Assembly (NCBI RefSeq): GCF_004010195.1
Contig: NC_057719.1
Coordinates: 8,906,221 to 8,970,220 of the forward strand
DNA: 64,000 bases
Direction of reading: 5' to 3'
Source: Chiloscyllium plagiosum
Taxonomy: Eukaryota
The translations under genes were made by a program, and so were the position numbers. The notes under the pieces were generated by a model, which had not been told where the DNA came from, ran no database searches, and saw only the letters and a program-made list of their open reading frames with translations. Below are positions 8,261 to 33,410 of the stretch, piece after piece. Position 1 is the first letter of the stretch; the number at the start of each line of letters is the position of its first letter.

Positions 8261-9009
8261 GCTGGCAGAGATTACTATCTGCATAGAACCGCAAGTAGAA
8301 ACAGAATCTCAGGAAGTGTAGCGCAGTGAGCTAATGACAAACAACAGAAGGAGGCTTGATACTTAGTAAATTACAGCCTGTAGGATGGTAATTGAAAGCA
8401 AAGGCAAGAGAAAGGTTGCTCGTAGATTGTTTGGGTCAGTGGTGGCCTGGCAATCAACAGTGCGCTTAATAGCTTTGTACCTTGTCATTTTCATTGTCAA
8501 CCATCACCCACAGCAAAGAAAAAACCTTGTCTCCCCTGCTGTGCTTTTCTCTCCCTTGTGCTGCACTGGACTGTCAAAACTGGGGACATTGGTGGCTTGA
8601 GGTCTTCAGTAGCTGAAGTGGGATATGTGTAGGATGAACTAAACAACAGATTTTAAACCTCTTTTAGCAGAGACAGGTCAACCAGGTCTTGTTCCCAGTT
8701 GGGAAGCTGATGGGATTGGGTGCATCGTTGCTTTTACACATCAACCCATTTTACTCTCAGTTAAAGGCCACAGTTAACATTGGATGTTTATTCCATACTT
8801 AATCAACAATCAGGTAAGTATACATAAAGCTTCAATAAAATCATTTTTAAAGGAATAATGCCTTTGGGGTTTATGCCTGTGTTAATTGGAGTTGCTTTTC
8901 AATATTTTGACACAATTAATTCTCTTTGGTAATGGTTAGTTGTAGAATACTTTCTGTAAGGAAGAATAACTATACAAGCCAGTTCAAAGCTAAGGTTATG
9001 GACTGAAAG

Positions 9010-9425
9010 GTTATAGAGAATGGAAACAGACCATTCAGTCCAACTTGTCCATGCTGATGAAACATCCCTATCTGATCTAGTCCCATTTACCAGCACTTGG
9101 CCCATATTCCTCTCAACTCTTCCTATTCATATACTCATCCTTTTAAATGTTGTAATTGTACCAGGCTCCACCATTTCTTCTGGCAGCTCATTCCATACAT
9201 GCACCACCCTCAGGTGCCTTCACCTGAAACCTATGCCTTCGAGTTTTGGACTCCCCCACTCCAGGGAAAAGCCCTTGGATATTTACCCAATCCATACCCC
9301 TCATAATTTTATAAACCTCTATAAGGTCACCCCTCAGCCTCCGATGCTCCAGGGAAAAAAACCCCAGTCTATTCAGCCTAACCCTATTCCTCAAACCCAC
9401 CAGACCCGGTAACATCCTTGCAATG
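9010..9425 (-). mobile_element. CR1 (HER1-type) LINE 3' fragment
   Basis: MLPGL..RLNRLGFFSLEHRRLRGDLIEVYKIMRG is the CR1 ORF2 C-terminus, followed by 3' UTR. Confidence 0.9.
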
Positions 9426-9989
9426 GTTTTATGACTGTGTTTCTGGCTCAGGCTAATATAAACTTAGGCTGACAAATGTGAAAATACTTGAAGTAAAAAG
9501 CCACAAGGAGACAACTATTTTTAAAAATGATTTAGATTTGCATGTAACTAGGTTGTGTATATTTGTTCTTTGTTAATTCATGGGATGTGGGGGCTACTGA
9601 CAAGGTCAGCATTTATTGGTAATCCCTAATTGACCAGCGAGCATTTATCGGTCAACCACATTGCTGTGGGCCTGAGGTCGCATGGAGGCCAGCCCAGGTA
9701 AGGATGGCAATTTCCTTCACATGAGTGAACCAGGTGGGCTCTGACAGCATAAATTTCATGGTCTTCATTAGACTCAGTACAAGAACTTTATTGAATTCAA
9801 ATTCCATCATCTGGCAGAATGGGACTTGAACCCATGATTCCAGAACATTTCCTGGAGTAGAGAACTTCAAAGAAGATGAGGGCAGGTGAAGGGAAAGTGT
9901 GAGCAGGGGTGGCACAGGAGCAAGTCAAGCGAGATCTTTTTTTGGACACTAATTCGTTCTTACAGCAAGTCAATGCACAAAGAAGAGCA

Positions 9990-12240
9990 GCTCTCACATC
10001 TCCTTTAAACTTACTCCCTTTTACCTTAAACCTATGTCCCTTGACATTTCTATCCTGGGGAAAGGTCTCTGCCTCTCCATTTTATCTGTGCCTCTCAGAA
10101 TAGTTGTAAACGTCTATCAGGCTGCCCTGACTCTTTCAAGTGAAAACAAGCCACAATCTTGCTTCATAGCTAATACCCTCCAAACCAGGCAACATCCTGT
10201 TAAATCAATTCTATAATCTCTTCAAAGCCTCCACATTCTTCTGGTCACACGATGACCAGAACTGTGCACAATATTCCAAATGTGGCCGAACCCAAGTTCT
10301 GCACAACAGCACCATCATTTGCCAATGTTTATACTCAATGCCCCAGCCGATGAAGGCAAGCATACCATATGTCTTCTTCACCATCTTATCCACTTGTGGT
10401 GCTGTTTTCAGGCAACTGTGGACTTGTACACTCAGATTCCTCCATATGTTGATGCCAGTAAGGGTTCTGCCATTTGCTGTACACTTCTCTCCTGCATTAG
10501 ACCTTCCCAAAATGGATCACCTCGTATTTCTCTGCCATTTCTCTGCCCAACACTCCAGCCTATTTTTTGAATCAACCTGTTCAGAGCTGGTATTACACAC
10601 CTCTGGAGCAGGTGGATCTTGAACCTGGGCCTCCTGACCCAGGGGTAGGGACACTACCCAGTGCAACACAAGACACATAGTTCCAATGACCTGCTGTATC
10701 CTCTGGCAATCCTCCTCACTATTCGCAACTCCCCCAATTTTTGTGTTGTCCGCAAACTTACTAATCAGACCACCTACATTCTCCTCCAGATCATTTATAT
10801 ATTCTATAAAGAATGGGGTCCCAGCACTGTTCCCTGTGGGATACCACTGGTCACAAATCTCCAGTCAGAAAAATAATTTCACTGCTACTCTTTGTCTTCT
10901 ATGACCAAGTCAGTTCTCTATCCATCTTACCAGCTCACCACAGACCCCATTACAGTTCTGAGGAAGGGTCACTCGACCCACAACGTTAACTCTGATTTCT
11001 CTCCACAGATGCTGCCAGATCTGCTGAGCTTTCCCAGTGATTTTTGCTCCCATGTGACTTCACCATTTCTACCAGCCTACCATGAGGGTTCTTGTCAAAG
11101 GCCTTGCTAAAGTCCATGTAGACAACATCCACCACTCTGCCCTTAATCATCTTTGTCACTTCCTCAAAAAACTCAATCAGTTTGTGACACACAATCTCCC
11201 CTACACAATGCCATGCTGCCCATACTTTTTCAAATGTGACTAAATCTTGCCCCTGAGAATTTTCTCCAATAATTTTCCTGTGACTGATGTAAGGCTCACT
11301 GGCCTCCAATTGCCTGGATTATCCTTGCTGCTCTTCTTAAGCGAAGAAGCAACATTGGCAAATCTCCAATCCTCTAGGGCCTCTCCTGTGACTAAAGAGG
11401 ATACAATGATTTCACACAACGTCCCACCAATTTCCTGACCCGCCTCCCTCAGCATTCTGGGATAGATTCCATCAGGTCCTGGGGACTTGTCTACCTTCAT
11501 GCTTTTCAGAACACCCAACACCTCCTCCTTTTCTTCATTGACATGTTCCAAAATATCAACATACCCTTCCTATGACTCACCATCCATTATGCCATTCTCC
11601 AAAACAAGGTTTTGTTACAGACCTCACCCACTTCCTCTGGGTCCCTGCAAAAATCCCCTCTTTGCCTCTGACTGGATCGACCCTTTCCTTAGCTACCATC
11701 TTGCTCCTTATGCATGTATAAAAAAACCTTGGGATTTTCCTTAATGCTATATACCAAAGACATTTCATGGCTCCATTTCGCTCCCCTAATACCTTGCTTG
11801 AGTTATTTCCTAACATTTTCCTACCTTCAAGGGCTCTGTCCGTCTTCAGCTTCCTAAACCCTTGTATGTCTCCTCTTTCTTCTTGACGAAGCTCATAGTT
11901 TCTCTTGTCATCCAAGGTTCCTGAATCTTGCCATCTTTATCCTTCATTTTCACAGGAAGATCCTGGCCCTGAACTCTAATGAATTGGCCTTTTAAAGATC
12001 CCCATTTGCCAGATGTGGATTTACCCAAAACAACCAACCCCGAATCTACATTCCCCAGTTCCTGCCAAATATTGTCACAGTTAGCCTCTCCCCAGTTTAG
12101 TACATTCACCCGACTTATCCACTCTTATCTATAAGTGACCTAAAACTTAGGAAATTATGGCCACTGTTCCTGAAATGCTTCCCCATTGAAATTTCAATCT
12201 CCTGGCCAGGATCATTTCCCAGTATCAGATTTAATGTGAC
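9990..12240 (-). mobile_element. Decayed CR1 LINE ORF2 (linker, RT, C-terminus) interrupted by smaller insertions
   Basis: Frameshifted motifs KSPGPDGIYPRML, DNPGNWRPVSLTSV, VDVVYMDFSKAFDK and VRPHLEYCAQFWS. Confidence 0.9.
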
Positions 12241-12242
12241 TC

Positions 12243-12815
12243 TTTTTTTTGTGAGACACAGTGAGAGACACAAGGTGCACAAATCTTTATTCAATTTCCA
12301 CCACCAGGAAGAAAGGAAACACCCAAGTGGCCAGTGACAAGCAGTGCCCTTCACATCAAAGGGCAGTGCTGTGTGATCAAACAGTGAAGGGGAGGGCAGG
12401 GGTTAAATCAAAATAGAGTTGGAGGGGGAAATAAAACACTCCACTCCCTGCGGTGCCCACGTCTCCCTGAACAGCTCGAGGGAGTTGGTGGACACCGCGT
12501 GCTCCTTCTCCAGGGACACCCAGGCTTGGACGTAACCGCGGAACAGGGACAGGCAATCGGCCCTAACGACCCCCTCCATAGCCCGCTGCCTTGTTTATGG
12601 CCAATTTGACCAGGCCCAGGAGCAGACCCATGAGGAGATCCTCGGGCCTACCCTCCCCCCTCCAAACCGGGTGCCCAAAGATCATGAGAGTGAGACTGAA
12701 GTGCAGCCAAAAACAGAGGAGAAGGTTCTCTAGAAAACTAAAAAGGGAGTGCAAACGCTCACATCCCATATACACATGGTCCACGGACTCCACTGCATCA
12801 CAGAACAAGCAGTTA
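12243..12815 (-). mobile_element. L1/Tx1-clade retrotransposon 3' fragment (ORF2 zinc-knuckle C-terminus, 3' UTR, poly-A)
   Basis: CLFCDAVESVDHVYMGC...IFGH...LLLGLVKLAI. AATAAA on the minus strand near 12290 and an A-tail at 12244-12250. GC/CpG-rich relative to its flanks. Confidence 0.8.
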
Positions 12816-12874
12816 GTGAGACTCCTTACCTAGATGGACTACATGTAATTGAATGCAACAAAAGTTCCATCCAC

Positions 12875-13090
12875 AAGGTGTTAGGTTCTTTACTCAGAGA
12901 GTAGTAAGGGTGTGGAATGCCCTTCCTGCAACAGTAGTGGTGTCGCCAACATTAAGGGCATATAAATGGTCATTGGATAAATATATGGATGAAAATGGAA
13001 AAGTGTGGGTTAGATGGGATTCAGATTGGTTTCACAGGTCAGTGCACCATCGAGGGCCGAAGGGCCTGTGTGTGCTATACTGTTCTAACT
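12875..13090 (+). mobile_element. CR1 LINE extreme 3' end
   Basis: FFTQRVVRVWNALP motif and tail gagggccgaagggcctgt...tgttcta. Confidence 0.9.
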
Positions 13091-13094
13091 ATTG

Positions 13095-14565
13095 TATAAC
13101 AAATTTCCCGAGACTGCCTTTAACAAACCATTCCCATCTTCTCTCCATGCAAACTCCCATTTTGCAGCGAGAACAACCATTGGAATGTGGTGAGGGCACA
13201 GGATCACACCAGTTACTGTCATTCACTGTAATTCCACACTGTAATCCGACAAGTCCACTGGGGCTGGTCCATCCCTCGTTGAAAAGACATCCACTAGTGG
13301 CGGGGTTATTAGAATTGGCGGATGCTCAAGCAGCCAGGGCTAGGGGAGTGTAGGAACCAAAGAGCTGGAAGACCCAAGGGCAGAGAAAGATTCAAAGACA
13401 TGGGTGAGATTTTACAAGAGGATGTGTTGATCGACCAGGACCCCACATACGTCAATGCGTGGATGGGGGCAATGGATGAACTTGACTTGGTTCTCCATGC
13501 AAACTCCCATTTTGCAGCGAGAACAACCATTGGAATGTGGTGAGGGCACAGGATCACACCAGTTACTGTCATTCACTGTAATTCCACACTGTAATCCGAC
13601 AAGTCCACTGAGGCTGGTCCATCCCTCGTTGAAAAGACATCCACGAGTGGCGGGGTTATTAGAATTGGTGGATGCTCAAGCGGCCAGGGCTAGGGGAGTA
13701 TAGAAACCACAAGAGCTGGAAGACCCAAGGGCAGAGAAAGATTCAAAGACATGGGTGAGATTTCACAAGAGGATGTGTTGATCGACCAGGACCCCACATA
13801 CGTCAATGCATGGATGGGGGCAATGGATGAACTTGACTTGATGCGAGTTCCTTTATAGGTAACAGGATTTTCAATGAGCTCAAGCTTACGGACATGATAA
13901 AGTGGGACACAGCCTGGACAGTACAGTCTCTCATTAGAATCAGCTGGTAGAGACTGTGTTGGCAATACATTACCATCTTCAAAACAAAACTTCCAACTCA
14001 CAGTCTCTTCGAAGAGACCATTCATTTTTGGCATGTCGATTTTCAACATGGCACAAGGGCATAGGACGGACACCGCAGATTGCACACGCATTACGCCAGC
14101 TGTGACCTCTGACCCATGCCCCCACCACCCACAATTCCCATTACCACTGGTTTCAATTCTATTTCGGTGGCAGTGAGCAAATCGTCCCCCGTCCCATGTC
14201 TGCGCTGACTGTACACTGAGAGAATAATCCTCCACCCCTTCCTAACTGCAACACAAGCTTCAGCATCTATTTTCTTAAAGTCATCCTTGTAAAACAACAG
14301 CAATGTTTCTTCTGCAGACAATCTCCAATGAAAATCAACAAACTGAACCTGATTGAGGCTAGGAGCCAGGGCTGGGGTGGGAAGGGATTGCAACCCAAGG
14401 AAATCCCAATGTTTTTTTTTAAGCCAGTCCGATTTGCTGACCCGATCTTTGAAGTATTTTGACGCACAAGTCCTGAAGGTAGGAAAACTGCCAAATCCCG
14501 AGCAACCCATTTCTGGGACTGCTAGTTGAAAACACCAAGCTCGCTACAGACAGGACTTGGGGTGT
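13095..14565 (-). pseudogene. Degraded coding-like insert of unknown origin; candidate endogenous viral element
   Basis: Non-repetitive segment with overlapping minus-strand ORFs (14091-14510 and 13690-14235) and a further Cys-rich frame. N-glycosylation sequons are present and there is no intron structure. See findings. Confidence 0.4.
13142..13840. repeat. Tandem duplication, 2 x ~350 bp
   Basis: 13142-13489 and 13492-13840 are near-identical, with scattered substitutions and a net 1-bp indel. Confidence 0.97.
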
Positions 14566-14579
14566 TGTGGGAGCAATTT

Positions 14580-14780
14580 CCTGCAGATGCTGGAATTTGT
14601 ACTGAAAACAGAAAATGCTGGAGATCACAGCGGGTCAGGCAGCATCTGTGGAGAGTGAGAAAGCTAATGTTTCAAGTCGAAGCTTATGGCTTCAAGTCAG
14701 CCCTGATGAAGCGTCATCGAGACTCGAAACGTTAGCTTGCTCTCTCTTTCCATGGATACTGCCCCACCTCCTTGGGGAAT
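14580..14780. mobile_element. Penelope pLTR-derived repeat with a hammerhead-like core at 14703-14735 (+)
   Basis: ctgatga-agcgtc-atcga-gactc-gaaac-gttagc. Confidence 0.7.
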
Positions 14781-15391
14781 TTTACTTCTCTTTGGCAAGG
14801 TGTGGGGAGGTGAAAAAGAAGCTGTATTTTATTTCACTGAACAACTCAGAAAAGACAATGTTTTGTTCATTTTTAATTTAACACCAAGTTGCTCCTCTTC
14901 CACTATATTAACATCAACAGTGACTGAATGAATTGAATTGGCTTAATCACAAGGGACTGGAGATATTTGTTTCTTTAACTGGTGTTCAGGGATCACAATA
15001 CAATATTTCTCGCCCATTCTCCCCAGGAGAATCCAGACCCGACAGAATCACTCGAGACAATCAATCACTTGAGCTGACGAGGAGAGGTTTTGAGACCTTA
15101 TATCTCCTAACACTAGTGGTCCAGCAATATTGCTGATGATGAAACCAGCACAATTAGATTGGGCTGTTGCTAAACAAGATTTGTTCCATTCATCACCAAG
15201 TCTTGTCAGTAGCGAGCGAGGGACATGAAAGTTAATTTCTGTGCAACTTCCAAATCAGAGCAGGCCGACCCACGATCGTTCTGTCAGGTCGGAAACGAGT
15301 TGGCCTGCAGTAATTTTTTTGAGGAATGGATTGAAAAGACCATGAAAGAGGTGGTGACAACATGTTACTGACTGCCATCAGGGTTACTCAC

Positions 15392-15573
15392 TATGTGAAG
15401 CTGAAGGAAGTCTCCCAGACCAGGAGCGCTATCCACTCGCACCAGGATTGCATCTTTCACTGATGTGCTGAATCCAACAGCTAGGCGGTCGGTCCTTGTG
15501 CTGGGTCTGTCGTTGGCCGGCCATGTGTAGGTAATGACCCCGCCTCCTCGGCCAAATATGTATGTAGTACCAG
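15392..15573 (-). CDS. NRXN3: Internal coding exon of a neurexin (start of LNS6/laminin-G domain shared by alpha and beta neurexins), most similar to neurexin-3
   Basis: Translates as (x)[60 protein letters not shown]. Acceptor is cttccAG (AG at 15575-15574) and donor GTGAGT starts at 15391. Length is 182 bp with a phase-1 start and phase-0 end. [13 protein letters not shown] and [12 protein letters not shown] are NRXN3-like. The neurexin call is firmer than the paralog assignment. Confidence 0.93.
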
Positions 15574-15612
15574 CTGGAAGACAATAGGATATTCTATCAG
15601 CACTGTGCTTGG

Positions 15613-15906
15613 CACAGGTATCACAGATCACAGTATCCCAATTCACATGTATCCCAATTCACAGTTATCTTAGTTCACAGGTATCACAGATCACAGTATC
15701 CCAATTCACATGTATCCCAATTCACAGTTATCTTAGTTCACAGGTATCACAGATCACACTATCCCAATTCACAGGTTCCCAGTTCACAGTTATCTTAGTT
15801 CACAGGTATCACAGATCACACTATCCCATTTCATACGTATTCCAGTTCACAGGTATCACAGGTTACAGGTTTCCCAGTTCACAGTTACCATAGATCACAG
15901 TTACCA
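15613..15906. repeat. 63-bp-unit minisatellite built of ~16-bp subunits
   Basis: Unit starts (cacaggtatcacagatcaca) at 15613, 15676, 15739 and 15801, then the array decays. Confidence 0.92.
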
Positions 15907-16780
15907 GAGTCGTATTGTAATCTCACCACCAAAGCTCAATGCCTTCACCTCAAAATTAAAAGGGAAACACTTTGCTCGCGATTTCCTCAAGATGCTTCCC
16001 GATTGGCCTTTTGTACCCGTTTCTGCTGATACAGCCATTGGTTTAAAATTTGGGGGGGGGTGGGGTTTTAAATCCCAAATTTTTAACAAAATTACGCCAA
16101 CCAATCAGGAGGACAGCCTGAGGAAATTCCCAGACATTGCTCAGGAATGGACAACACAGCCCGCGGAAACCTGGAACAAGGGTTGGCTATTCAGCCCATC
16201 AGGTCTGCTGTACTATTCAACATAATGGAGGCTGACCTTCTGTCTCAGTGACACACGCACATTTTCTCTCCCCATACCCCTTGACAATAAATGTTCAAAT
16301 TTGAGACTTCCCCACTGGCCTGTGCTGATGTTTAAGTTTCAAATGAATCACCTCCCATTCCCTTTCATCCCAACCTGAGTATCCATTTGAAAATAAAGTC
16401 GCCATTTTAAAAGAAGTGTTGAATATTTTTACCTGCTTTGACCGAACATGTTAACTTTGATTGTACCTTTGGAGGTTTATGGCATGACCTCTAACTTCCA
16501 GTTGCATCCTTCCCCTGACCTCTTGCCTCCAGTTGCACCCTTCCCCTGACCTCTCACCTCCAATTGCACCCTTTCGTCCATCCCATCCTTTCCCTGGTCA
16601 CCTGATTTGTTTGTCCTCACAGCACACTCTGTCTCTCTTCCCTGTCCAGCTGGGTGTGAAGCCTGGTGATTTCTTACCACAGTGAAAGACCCAAGACTTG
16701 CCCAAATAAACAGGAAAGAAATTCAGAAAACAAAAACACACGCCTTTCATGAAACAAATTACTGCAAGTTGCAGCAGTGG

Positions 16781-26690: not shown

Positions 26691-27677
26691 TACTATAAAC
26701 CGACCGACTCCCACAGCTACCTAGACTTCACCTCCTCCCACCCTGCCCCCTGTAAAAACGCCATCCCATATTCCCAATTCCTTCGTCTCCGCTGCATCTG
26801 CTCCCAGGGGGACCAGTTACAATACCGTACAACCCAGATGGCCTCCTTCTTCAAAGACCATAATTTCCCCCCCAGANNNNNNNNNNNNNNNNNNNNNNNN
26901 NNNNNNNNNNNNNNNNNNNNNNNNNNNNNNNNNNNNNNNNNNNNNNNNNNNNNNNNNNNNNNNNNNNNNNNNNNNNNNNNNNNNNNNNNNNNNNNNNNNN
27001 NNNNNNNNNNNNNNNNNNNNNNNNNNNNNNNNNNNNNNNNNNNNNNNNNNNNNNNNNNNNNNNNNNNNNNNNNNNNNNNNNNNNNNNNNNNNNNNNNNNN
27101 NNNNNNNNNNNNNNNNNNNNNNNNNNNNNNNNNNNNNNNNNNNNNNNNNNNNNNNNNNNNNNNNNNNNNNNNNNNNNNNNNNNNNNNNNNNNNNNNNNNN
27201 NNNNNNNNNNNNNNNNNNNNNNNNNNNNNNNNNNNNNNNNNNNNNNNNNNNNNNNNNNNNNNNNNNNNNNNNNNNNNNNNNNNNNNNNNNNNNNNNNNNN
27301 NNNNNNNNNNNNNNNNNNNNNNNNNNNNNNNNNNNNNNNNNNNNNNNNNNNNNNNNNNNNNNNNNNNNNNNNNNNNNNNNNNNNNNNNNNNNNNNNNNNN
27401 NNNNNNNNNNNNNNNNNNNNNNNNNNNNNNNNNNNNNNNNNNNNNNNNNNNNNNNNNNNNNNNNNNNNNNNNNNNNNNNNNNNNNNNNNNNNNNNNNNNN
27501 NNNNACCTATCACATTTCCAACGCCCCTCCCCCAAGTCCCTCCTCCCTACCTTTTATCTTAGCCTGCTGGACACACTTTCCTCATTTCTGAAGAAGGGCT
27601 CATGCCCGAAATGTCGATTCTCCTGCTCCTTGGATGCTGCCTGACCTGCTGCACTTTTCCAGCAACACATTTTCAGT
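26691..27677 (+). mobile_element. Penelope-like retroelement (RT C-terminal region, gap, 3' pLTR with hammerhead core)
   Basis: YKPTDSHSYLDFTSSHPAPCKNAIPYSQFLRLRRICS precedes the gap. After the gap, ctgaaga-agggc-tcat-gccc-gaaa lies at about 27588-27612. Continuity across the gap is assumed. Confidence 0.85.
26877..27504. other. Assembly gap
   Basis: Run of N. Confidence 1.
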
Positions 27678-32185: not shown

Positions 32186-33410
32186 AGAACATAGAACATA
32201 GAAGAATACAGCGCAGTACAGGCCCTTCGGCCCTCGATGTTGCGCCGATCCAAGCCCACCTAACCTACATTAGCCCACTATCCTCCATATGCCTATCCAA
32301 TGCCCGCTTAAATGCCCATAATGAGGGAGAGTCCACCACTGCTACTGGCAGGGCATTCCATGAACTCACGACTCGCTGAGTAAAGAACCTACCCCTAACA
32401 TCTGTCCTATACCTACCCCCGCTTAATTTAAAGCTATGCCCCCTTGTAATAACTGACTCCATACGTGGAAAAAGATTCTCACTGTCGACCCTACCTAAAC
32501 CNNNNNNNNNNNNNNNNNNNNNNNNNNNNNNNNNNNNNNNNNNNNNNNNNNNNNNNNNNNNNNNNNNNNNNNNNNNNNNNNNNNNNNNNNNNNNNNNNNN
32601 NNNNNNNNNNNNNNNNNNNNNNNNNNNNNNNNNNNNNNNNNNNNNNNNNNNNNNNNNNNNNNNNNNNNNNNNNNNNNNNNNNNNNNNNNNNNNNNNNNNN
32701 NNNNNNNNNNNNNNNNNNNNNNNNNNNNNNNNNNNNNNNNNNNNNNNNNNNNNNNNNNNNNNNNNNNNNNNNNNNNNNNNNNNNNNNNNNNNNNNNNNNN
32801 NNNNNNNNNNNNNNNNNNNNNNNNNNNNNNNNNNNNNNNNNNNNNNNNNNNNNNNNNNNNNNNNNNNNNNNNNNNNNNNNNNNNNNNNNNNNNNNNNNNN
32901 NNNNNNNNNNNNNNNNNNNNNNNNNNNNNNNNNNNNNNNNNNNNNNNNNNNNNNNNNNNNNNNNNNNNNNNNNNNNNNNNNNNNNNNNNNNNNNNNNNNN
33001 NNNNNNNNNNNNNNNNNNNNNNNNNNNNNNNNNNNNNNNNNNNNNNNNNNNNNNNNNNNNNNNNNNNNNNNNNNNNNNNNNNNNNNNNNNNNNNNNNNNN
33101 NNNNNNNNNNNNNNNNNNNNNNNNNNNNNNNNNNNNACCTCCTTCGTCACCTTCTCAAAGAATTCAATAATGTTTGTGAGGCACGACCTGCCCTTCACAA
33201 AACTATGCTGACTATCCTTGATCACATTATTCCTATCCAGATGTTCATAAATCCTATCCCTTACAATTCTCTCTAAGATTTTGCCCACAACAGAAGTGAG
33301 ACTCACCTGCCTGTAGTTACTAGGGTTATCCCTACTCCCCTTCTTGAACAAGAGAACCACATTTGCTAGCCTCCAATCTTCTGGCACTACTCCTGTAGAC
33401 AACGAGGACA
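32186..33410 (-). mobile_element. Young CR1 LINE spanning an assembly gap
   Basis: GVVPEDWRLANV...QHSFVKGRSCLTN on one side of the gap; ORF2 C-terminus and tail on the other. Confidence 0.9.
32502..33136. other. Assembly gap
   Basis: Run of N. Confidence 1.

Follow-up and report, generated by a model that had tools for sequence, protein, structure and literature searches.

Pestivirus-derived endogenous viral elements (EVEs) of Crocidura shrews give clear BLAST matches (E = 3e-35), NS2/NS3 included, and one piece comes from the envelope glycoprotein E2; in the part of that report considered here (Li et al. 2022, PMC9550988), the elements were not seen in the transcriptomic reads screened. The locus that we describe would also be envelope-like, but it has neither such matches nor an NS2/NS3 piece; in contrast to the shrew elements, nothing in it represents a polymerase, a helicase or a protease. 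Flavivirid EVEs of ray-finned fish, from the tamanavirus and X2 lineages (Bamford 2022, PMC9752770, in part; PMC11089739, Table 3), are low-copy fossils of positive-strand RNA viruses, as our locus would be on the reading given below; in the same portion of PMC9752770 they were detected by similarity to known flavivirid proteins, whereas our locus has no such similarity. Such fossils are very rare in vertebrates: Table 3 of PMC11089739 gives eight flavivirid elements in vertebrates and none in cartilaginous fish.

Cartilaginous fish do carry other non-retroviral EVEs, namely one paramyxovirus-like, one hepadnavirus-like and three parvovirus-like elements (PMC11089739), and a benyvirus-like RdRp is described in the great white shark (PMC11521997, excerpt). 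Non-retroviral viruses, RNA viruses included, therefore do enter shark germlines. A reading made earlier from the sequence alone (the sequence-only reading) held that an RNA-virus fossil in a cartilaginous fish would be notable in itself; paramyxovirus-like and benyvirus-like ones are already published, and only a flavivirid one would be new, as far as the titles and abstract openings that we screened show; they contain no flavivirid element in cartilaginous fish. The known elements of this group are recognizable proteins of other families, whereas the one described here is an orphan.

The window, a 64,000-nucleotide stretch of Chiloscyllium plagiosum DNA, contains the island in a neurexin intron at 13088-14562, on the minus strand, which is the sense strand of the neurexin gene. 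The island and its neighbours are given here; A, B and C are three related organisms represented in sequencing runs.

9900..12245, minus strand: old, 5'-truncated CR1-type LINE (Pfam RVT_1, E = 4e-5; about 73% identity to paralogues; endonuclease profile 48.7 bits)
12880..13087, plus strand: 3' end of a CR1-type LINE, its tail adjoining the 3' end of the insert; common to A, B and C
13088..14562, minus strand: unique island, single copy, zero repeat coverage, coding score above 200 of 200 shuffles, present in organisms A, B and C
14563..14760, no strand assigned: high-copy repeat with internal inverted arms, on the 5' side of the insert (depth 1e4-1e5)
15392..15573, minus strand: neurexin exon, start of LNS6 (PDB neurexin chains, best 3mw4_A, E = 3.6e-32)

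Judged from 28 host loci, repeat coverage of 13088-14562 is nil, with 9000-13090 and 14560-14760 almost fully covered, and both ends of the insert adjoin other repeats. The exon at 15392-15573 is bounded by AG and GT, as read from the sequence, and the island sits in the intron that follows. A rightward extension of the insert was considered and dropped; 14780-15590 is unique, yet it is the neurexin exon and the start of its intron. That the island is integrated in a chromosome is seen from its position within a 95.8-Mb contig and from contigs running from flank into island in all three organisms. The CR1 tail has very high read depth, and bridging contigs lead from it into the island in four of four runs.

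The sequence-only reading took the retroelement ends on both sides as fitting retrotransposon-assisted capture. As evidence of capture these ends are weak, the intron being mostly repeats and the adjoining CR1 tail being oriented opposite to the insert, tail-to-tail. This orientation excludes the tail, which we take to be CR1 from its peptide FFTQRVVRVWN, as a partner for template switching. The insert is co-oriented with the old CR1, with about 840 bp of other repeats in between. The repeat at 14563-14760, previously read as a PLE, has no Rfam match at E<=1, and Rfam over 12000-15700 gave a chance miRNA only (E = 0.46).

Some other features of the neighbourhood are recorded here in their own right. 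Inside the right-hand repeat, 14690-14740 has a CTGATGA...GAAA core within inverted arms, presumably hammerhead-like, with nothing in Rfam at E<=1. On the minus strand, the 3' end of another LINE (12250-12850), assumed here to be Tx1-like, is flanked by the old CR1 on one side and the plus-strand CR1 tail on the other. A 22-nt inverted repeat (91%) connects 14539-14560, at the insert's 5' end, with 15196-15217, in unique intron DNA near the neurexin donor, and the two arms could pair in the neurexin pre-mRNA. A tandem array of 16-, 47- and 63-nt units (15589-15910) lies immediately upstream of the neurexin exon's splice acceptor. Runs of N at 26877-27504 and 32502-33136 both fall inside retroelement coding sequence.

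The island is decayed, intronless coding DNA on the minus strand. Coding character was scored with a three-periodic Markov model that allows frameshifts and was trained on viral coding sequences, in four models. The minus strand scores -18 to -25, a level that includes stop penalties and so is not independent of frame length; none of 200 shuffles that keep the trinucleotide make-up reached it in any model (averages -62 to -71), and 4-5 of 229 host chunks did (averages -69 to -76). Intact viral coding sequences score far above the island (+26 to +42). The plus strand was considered as the coding strand, from a likeness to polymerase motifs, and was rejected: it has no Pfam or PDB match and its score, -52 to -64, is that of background. 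The minus-strand features are these.

14091..14543, minus strand: upstream open frame of 150 codons containing WRLSAEE; best codon-model frame for about 14450-14110
13690..14241, minus strand: main open frame of 183 codons; 4.4% Cys, sequons NTS and NLS
14101..14172, minus strand: fusion-loop-like motif C-x12-C-G-W-W-G-H-G-S-E-V-T; best local match to flavivirus E profiles
13492..13689, minus strand: continuation past the ILP stop in two largely open frames (codon models)

The peptides quoted in the sequence-only reading are present on the minus strand, its pattern C-x12-C-G-x-x-G-x-G-S-x-V-T is as stated, and its remark that splice architecture is absent agrees with an insert that reads as intronless coding DNA. 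Of its three sequons, two (NTS and NLS) fall within the 183-codon frame, but NDS belongs to a different frame. The 150- and 183-codon frames overlap by about 150 nt, and there are further minus-strand frames of 87 codons (13412-13675) and 78 codons (13089-13325). The codon-model path takes the 150-codon frame first and the 183-codon frame next and, in three of the four models, continues past the ILP stop; beyond that stop three models keep the 183-codon frame and the fourth switches to the third frame of the earlier reading. In the 90-nt block around the loop, an overlapping Gly-rich frame has the better codon-model score (4.0 versus -4.8 bits), and organism B has an indel inside the overlap of the loop frame and this Gly-rich frame. 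The 183-codon frame has no clear transmembrane segment.

One could imagine that the island never coded for anything and is unique, TpA-poor intron DNA in which long frames and motif look-alikes arose by chance. A frame as long as 183 codons appears in 2.2% of 2000 shuffles, and one of at least that length in 10 of 229 host chunks; moreover, the region was picked for its odd look and has no homologue. Against such an origin, two long frames abut on one strand, the coding score exceeds that of 200 of 200 trinucleotide-preserving shuffles, and one of the three organisms is free of breaks seen in the window. We consider it improbable that the island was never coding.

The composition is distinctive as well. 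Observed/expected TpA is 0.48 and CpG 0.42; TpA this low occurs in two of 229 host chunks, the two values together in none. Chunk averages for TpA and CpG are 0.52 and 0.58 in orthoflaviviruses, 0.89 and 0.39 in pestiviruses, and 0.77 and 0.71 in hepaciviruses. Low TpA and CpG would also be in keeping with vertebrate mRNA. A classifier using all dinucleotides plus base make-up gave the minus strand 0.14, unlike the Flaviviridae sampled, with 70 of 458 host chunks above the island and 6 of 811 virus chunks below it.

A genome-wide count of copies, suggested as a check in the earlier reading, returned a single copy by DNA and by protein, in an assembly that is fragmented (101,977 contigs) and possibly incomplete. 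By DNA, the island matches only itself in the 3.56-Gb assembly (one candidate). The same search with the neighbouring old LINE gave 12,608 candidates, with matches at 70-84% identity, so diverged paralogues are within its reach. By protein, searches with the two long frames gave no credible match elsewhere in the genome; one at E = 0.012 looks on reading like intron start plus CR1 sequence.

Part of the island appears twice in the window.

13142..13489, no strand assigned: second copy of 13492-13840, at 97-98% identity; half-depth bubble in organism A

In two organism A samples, 13231-13389 is covered by two contigs, each near one of the copies and at about half depth (7.3+7.0 versus 13.5-14; 6.3+4.0 versus 8.5-8.6), and single contigs cross the duplication in B, C and a third A run. 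From the half-depth bubble and the single contigs, it is likely that the 350-bp duplication represents two alleles of one locus that the assembly put in tandem. The island is repeat-free, as was first described, but its unique length is about 1.1 kb rather than about 1.45 kb, 350 bp having been counted twice. The two A alleles differ by 8 bases and one indel in about 350 (2.6%), an unusually deep allelic divergence here, and each has some states in common with organisms B and C.

Island or part-island sequence is carried by 20 of the 24 sequencing runs listed, from three organisms and seven studies. In A, contigs reach from 13492 to 14607 with 10 other letters; in B they cover that interval with 41 other letters and 14 gap letters, and in C they cover 13492-14370 with 41 and 22, respectively. 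The three organisms carry the island at about 95-99% identity. Each organism is covered by single contigs, and at 80% likeness there are no paralogous contigs of any length. In C, within 14370-14780, the stretch 14407-14528 is left uncovered by the contigs of one run, which may be a deletion, an insertion or a data gap. Because contigs run from flank to island in all three organisms, the insertion predates the split of A, B and C; the look-up for an empty site in relatives found the insert present in every one of them.

The island differs from the window at 41 of about 1116 positions in B (3.7%) and 41 of about 879 in C (4.7%), and the right flank at 14 of 588 (about 2.4%) and about 18 of 520 (about 3.5%), respectively. 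Frame-breaking indels vary among the organisms, B being free of some of the window's breaks and having others of its own. In the subset of 36 differences used, 14 are synonymous in the main frame, compared with 10.8 expected (P = 0.15); for the same 36, the other two frames give 15 and 9. The island decays neutrally, with no significant signal of selection. Mutation is very slow in sharks, at 7e-10 per base per generation (PMC10587355), and for this reason the insertion, being older than the split of A, B and C, is likely tens of millions of years old. No RNA run is listed among those that carry the island, and a poly-A single-cell run gave no island reads in the 2% of it that was read, which is weak evidence. 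There is no sign of a host function, with frames broken and decay neutral, and the insert most likely does nothing today.

These results bear on a host source, in which a fast-evolving host gene would have left the island behind as a processed pseudogene or a lost exon, or a low-copy mobile element would have contributed one of its genes, the source being missing from the assembly or extinct. The low TpA and moderate CpG would fit vertebrate mRNA, island and host transcript have the same sense, the composition classifier does not rate it flavivirid-like, and a fragmented assembly might hide a parent. Yet no parent is found in the assembly by DNA or protein, no paralogous contig of any length exists in the three organisms, and the 183-codon frame has no homologue in the protein collections described below. 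A LINE endonuclease was tried as the source with a 30-sequence profile of the genome's own LINEs (positive control 48.7 bits, 0 of 100 shuffles) and rejected, at 15.0 bits versus a null of 15.4 with 54 of 100 shuffles as good, and nhmmer E = 2. Four of eight alignments suggested that the endonuclease of a neighbouring CR1 runs into the island; none beat shuffles, and the profile rejected the idea. A host source is, in our view, unlikely. The expectation of a decayed insert with neither host parent nor transposon family was borne out by the single copy, the missing parent and the neutral decay.

Searches made without assuming a family were uniformly negative within their scope. There were no Pfam families for six frames, no NCBIfam or PHROGs matches for three frames and only chance matches to PDB sequences; the 150-codon frame matches nothing in Pfam or PDB. 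A word-based protein search (targets of 322-2000 residues) and motif-based scans of viral and metagenome contigs returned nothing. Among 1.84 billion protein representatives, the 183-codon frame has no credible homologue; the sole match (E = 2e-14) is a summed-repeat artefact over 13 stretches of a tandem-repeat protein, the best of them 29% identical over 62 residues. Two single-sequence structure models had low confidence (pLDDT 35 and 33), and Foldseek of the first of them against BFVD gave no match at E<=0.001. No significant similarity to a viral protein was found, local profiles reaching a nominal p of 0.01 at best, and tblastn against 80 flavivirus loci gave a best E of 0.028, on an antisense frame. 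The sequence-only reading had named the lack of any profile or structure match, together with neutral substitution, as speaking against a viral origin. Formally this is the outcome; a dead fossil of an unsampled virus, however, would look no different.

The resemblance put first in the sequence-only reading was to the class II fusion loop of flavivirus E. We built E profiles from 42 and from 63 sequences and aligned them to the island in a frameshift-tolerant way; the flavivirid sets compared are without the E proteins of cartilaginous-fish pestivirus-like, large-genome and tamana-like viruses. The profiles match the 14-residue loop only, at 23-24 bits (equalled by 2 and 3 of 100 shuffles, respectively), and in each E profile run no other local match scored higher. 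With cheap gaps the match is equalled by 1-7 of 100 shuffles, for a nominal p of 0.01-0.07 on a hypothesis picked after seeing the sequence; among host chunks, 7 of 229 reach it. The frameshift-aware alignment spans 14-19 residues, with no collinearity over domains I-III, and hmmsearch with the E profile gave -1.9 bits (E = 0.18). Nine residues are invariant in E, each in 63 of 63 rows; four are kept (C92, C105, G109 and G111), in exact E spacing together with S-x-V-T, and five are missing in register (C74, R99, G100, W101, which is the fusion-loop Trp, and C116). A loose version of the loop motif, defined after the fact, has no occurrence in 596,812 host codons. No E alignment picked up LP*PW, which had been likened to the LPLPW of E. 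With one 14-residue segment at p 0.01-0.07 and five of nine invariant residues missing, an assignment to flavivirus E is not supported, and we would not class the island as orthoflavivirus E because defining residues were looked for and five of them are missing.

A more distant E is another matter. A flavivirid might have supplied the island, which would then correspond to the N-terminal half of an E-type (class II) fusion glycoprotein; one possible source is the basal pestivirus-like viruses known from cartilaginous fish, reported to have E in place of E1E2. Pestivirus-like viruses, cartilaginous-fish ones included, are reported to encode E homologues that have fusion loops, and pestivirus ancestors are proposed to have swapped an E-type fusogen for E1E2 (Mifsud 2024, PMC11410658, in the text available). 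Cartilaginous-fish pestivirus-like viruses, named in PMC12942856 and in part of PMC9854234, are the natural candidates. The predicted product may have worked like a class II ectodomain of an unsampled lineage. Favouring this are the exact spacing of C92, C105, G109, G111 and S-x-V-T, the place of the loop as top local match in all E profiles, and a dinucleotide pattern that fits orthoflaviviruses. On the other side stand an alignment of 14 residues only, equalled by some shuffles and host chunks and chosen post hoc, and the five residues missing in register with an hmmsearch E of 0.18. We hold an E-type origin to be a tentative, minority possibility, and it is counted within the viral reading preferred below, of which it would be the less probable, more specific part.

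Other viral families did no better: the pestivirus E2, hepacivirus and phlebovirus profiles all fail to improve on flavivirus E. A pestivirus-type E2 fragment draws on two weak matches that a 12-sequence profile finds in E2 order, one at LCPC with an equally spaced Lys-x-Asn and one at a downstream W-T..W-C..G-x-C block. But 17-77 of 100 shuffles do as well, the signal fades with a 40-sequence profile, the pestivirus TpA average (0.89) is far from the island's 0.48, and the best BLASTP E against 63 polyproteins is 0.17. E2 was rejected as a candidate on the shuffles and the larger profile; we rate such a fragment as very improbable, with the classical pestiviruses largely refuted. The likeness of WRLSAEE to WRVSAEE of hepacivirus NS5A did not hold up either, a nine-genome profile giving 19.4 bits at another place, equalled by 24 of 40 shuffles, and the minus strand shows no similarity to the hepacivirus polyprotein (NS5A, E1 and E2). 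One phlebovirus glycoprotein was equalled by 2 of 100 shuffles; its best match ends at residue 136 of an 813-aa frame, off its loop motif.

In the course of these comparisons, a 15.1-kb Logan contig was seen to encode a divergent pestivirus-like polyprotein of 4802 aa, its NS5B 50% identical to that of atypical porcine pestivirus. Its N-terminal part is very long, the envelope region contains what look like three repeated Cys-rich modules, and an E2 domain is missing from its precomputed Pfam annotation.

We think that the insert is probably a dead non-retroviral viral fossil of unassigned family. A foreign origin is favoured because a host parent, given a likeness of about 95% across species, should have been found, and a viral one because there is no homologue anywhere, TpA and CpG are low as in vertebrate-adapted RNA, and introns are absent; the missing homologues are best explained by a fast-evolving viral gene. 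An endogenous viral element, as first proposed, is the best remaining reading, but assignment to any family is unsupported. Against the viral reading stand the lack of any positive viral match, a coding score far below that of intact viral sequences, the outcome of the composition classifier, TpA and CpG values that would suit vertebrate mRNA too, the codon model's choice of the Gly-rich frame in the loop block, and the fragmented assembly. Its 4.4% Cys, its sequons and the loop suggest an envelope ectodomain. We imagine that a fragment of a gene for a Cys-rich, glycosylated, envelope-like ectodomain would have been copied into the germline from a non-retroviral virus, likely by the reverse transcriptase of a host LINE. 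Reverse transcription by CR1 LINEs is the usual route of capture, and by analogy with this established mechanism LINE-mediated insertion would be plausible. Junction evidence is absent here, with no poly-A tail, target-site duplication or empty site shown.

Similarity screens miss the fossils of fast-evolving envelope genes, and an orphan insert recognized independently of homology shows an overlooked class. As it stands, the island is a datable, neutrally decaying orphan. It is possible, although we would not bet on it, that it is the first flavivirid fossil in cartilaginous fish and preserves a portion of a class II E whose lineage is unsampled, for instance that of E-bearing viruses basal to the pestiviruses. 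If so, its orthology in three species would show how old, at the least, this E-type fusogen with its divergent fusion loop is among flavivirids that infect vertebrates, and would date the fusogen proposed to have been exchanged for E1E2 by pestivirus ancestors.

Compared with orthoflavivirus E, the island is without Cys74, Arg99, Gly100, Trp101 and Cys116 in register and aligns nowhere outside the loop, with domain III, stem and transmembrane anchor not seen. It has in common with that protein the Cys92-Cys105 spacing, Gly109, Gly111, S-x-V-T and two aromatics after the second Cys. With the Crocidura pestivirus elements, as described in the portion of PMC9550988 considered here, it shares a single-locus, fragmented and intronless state with changes of frame, and orthology across related species.
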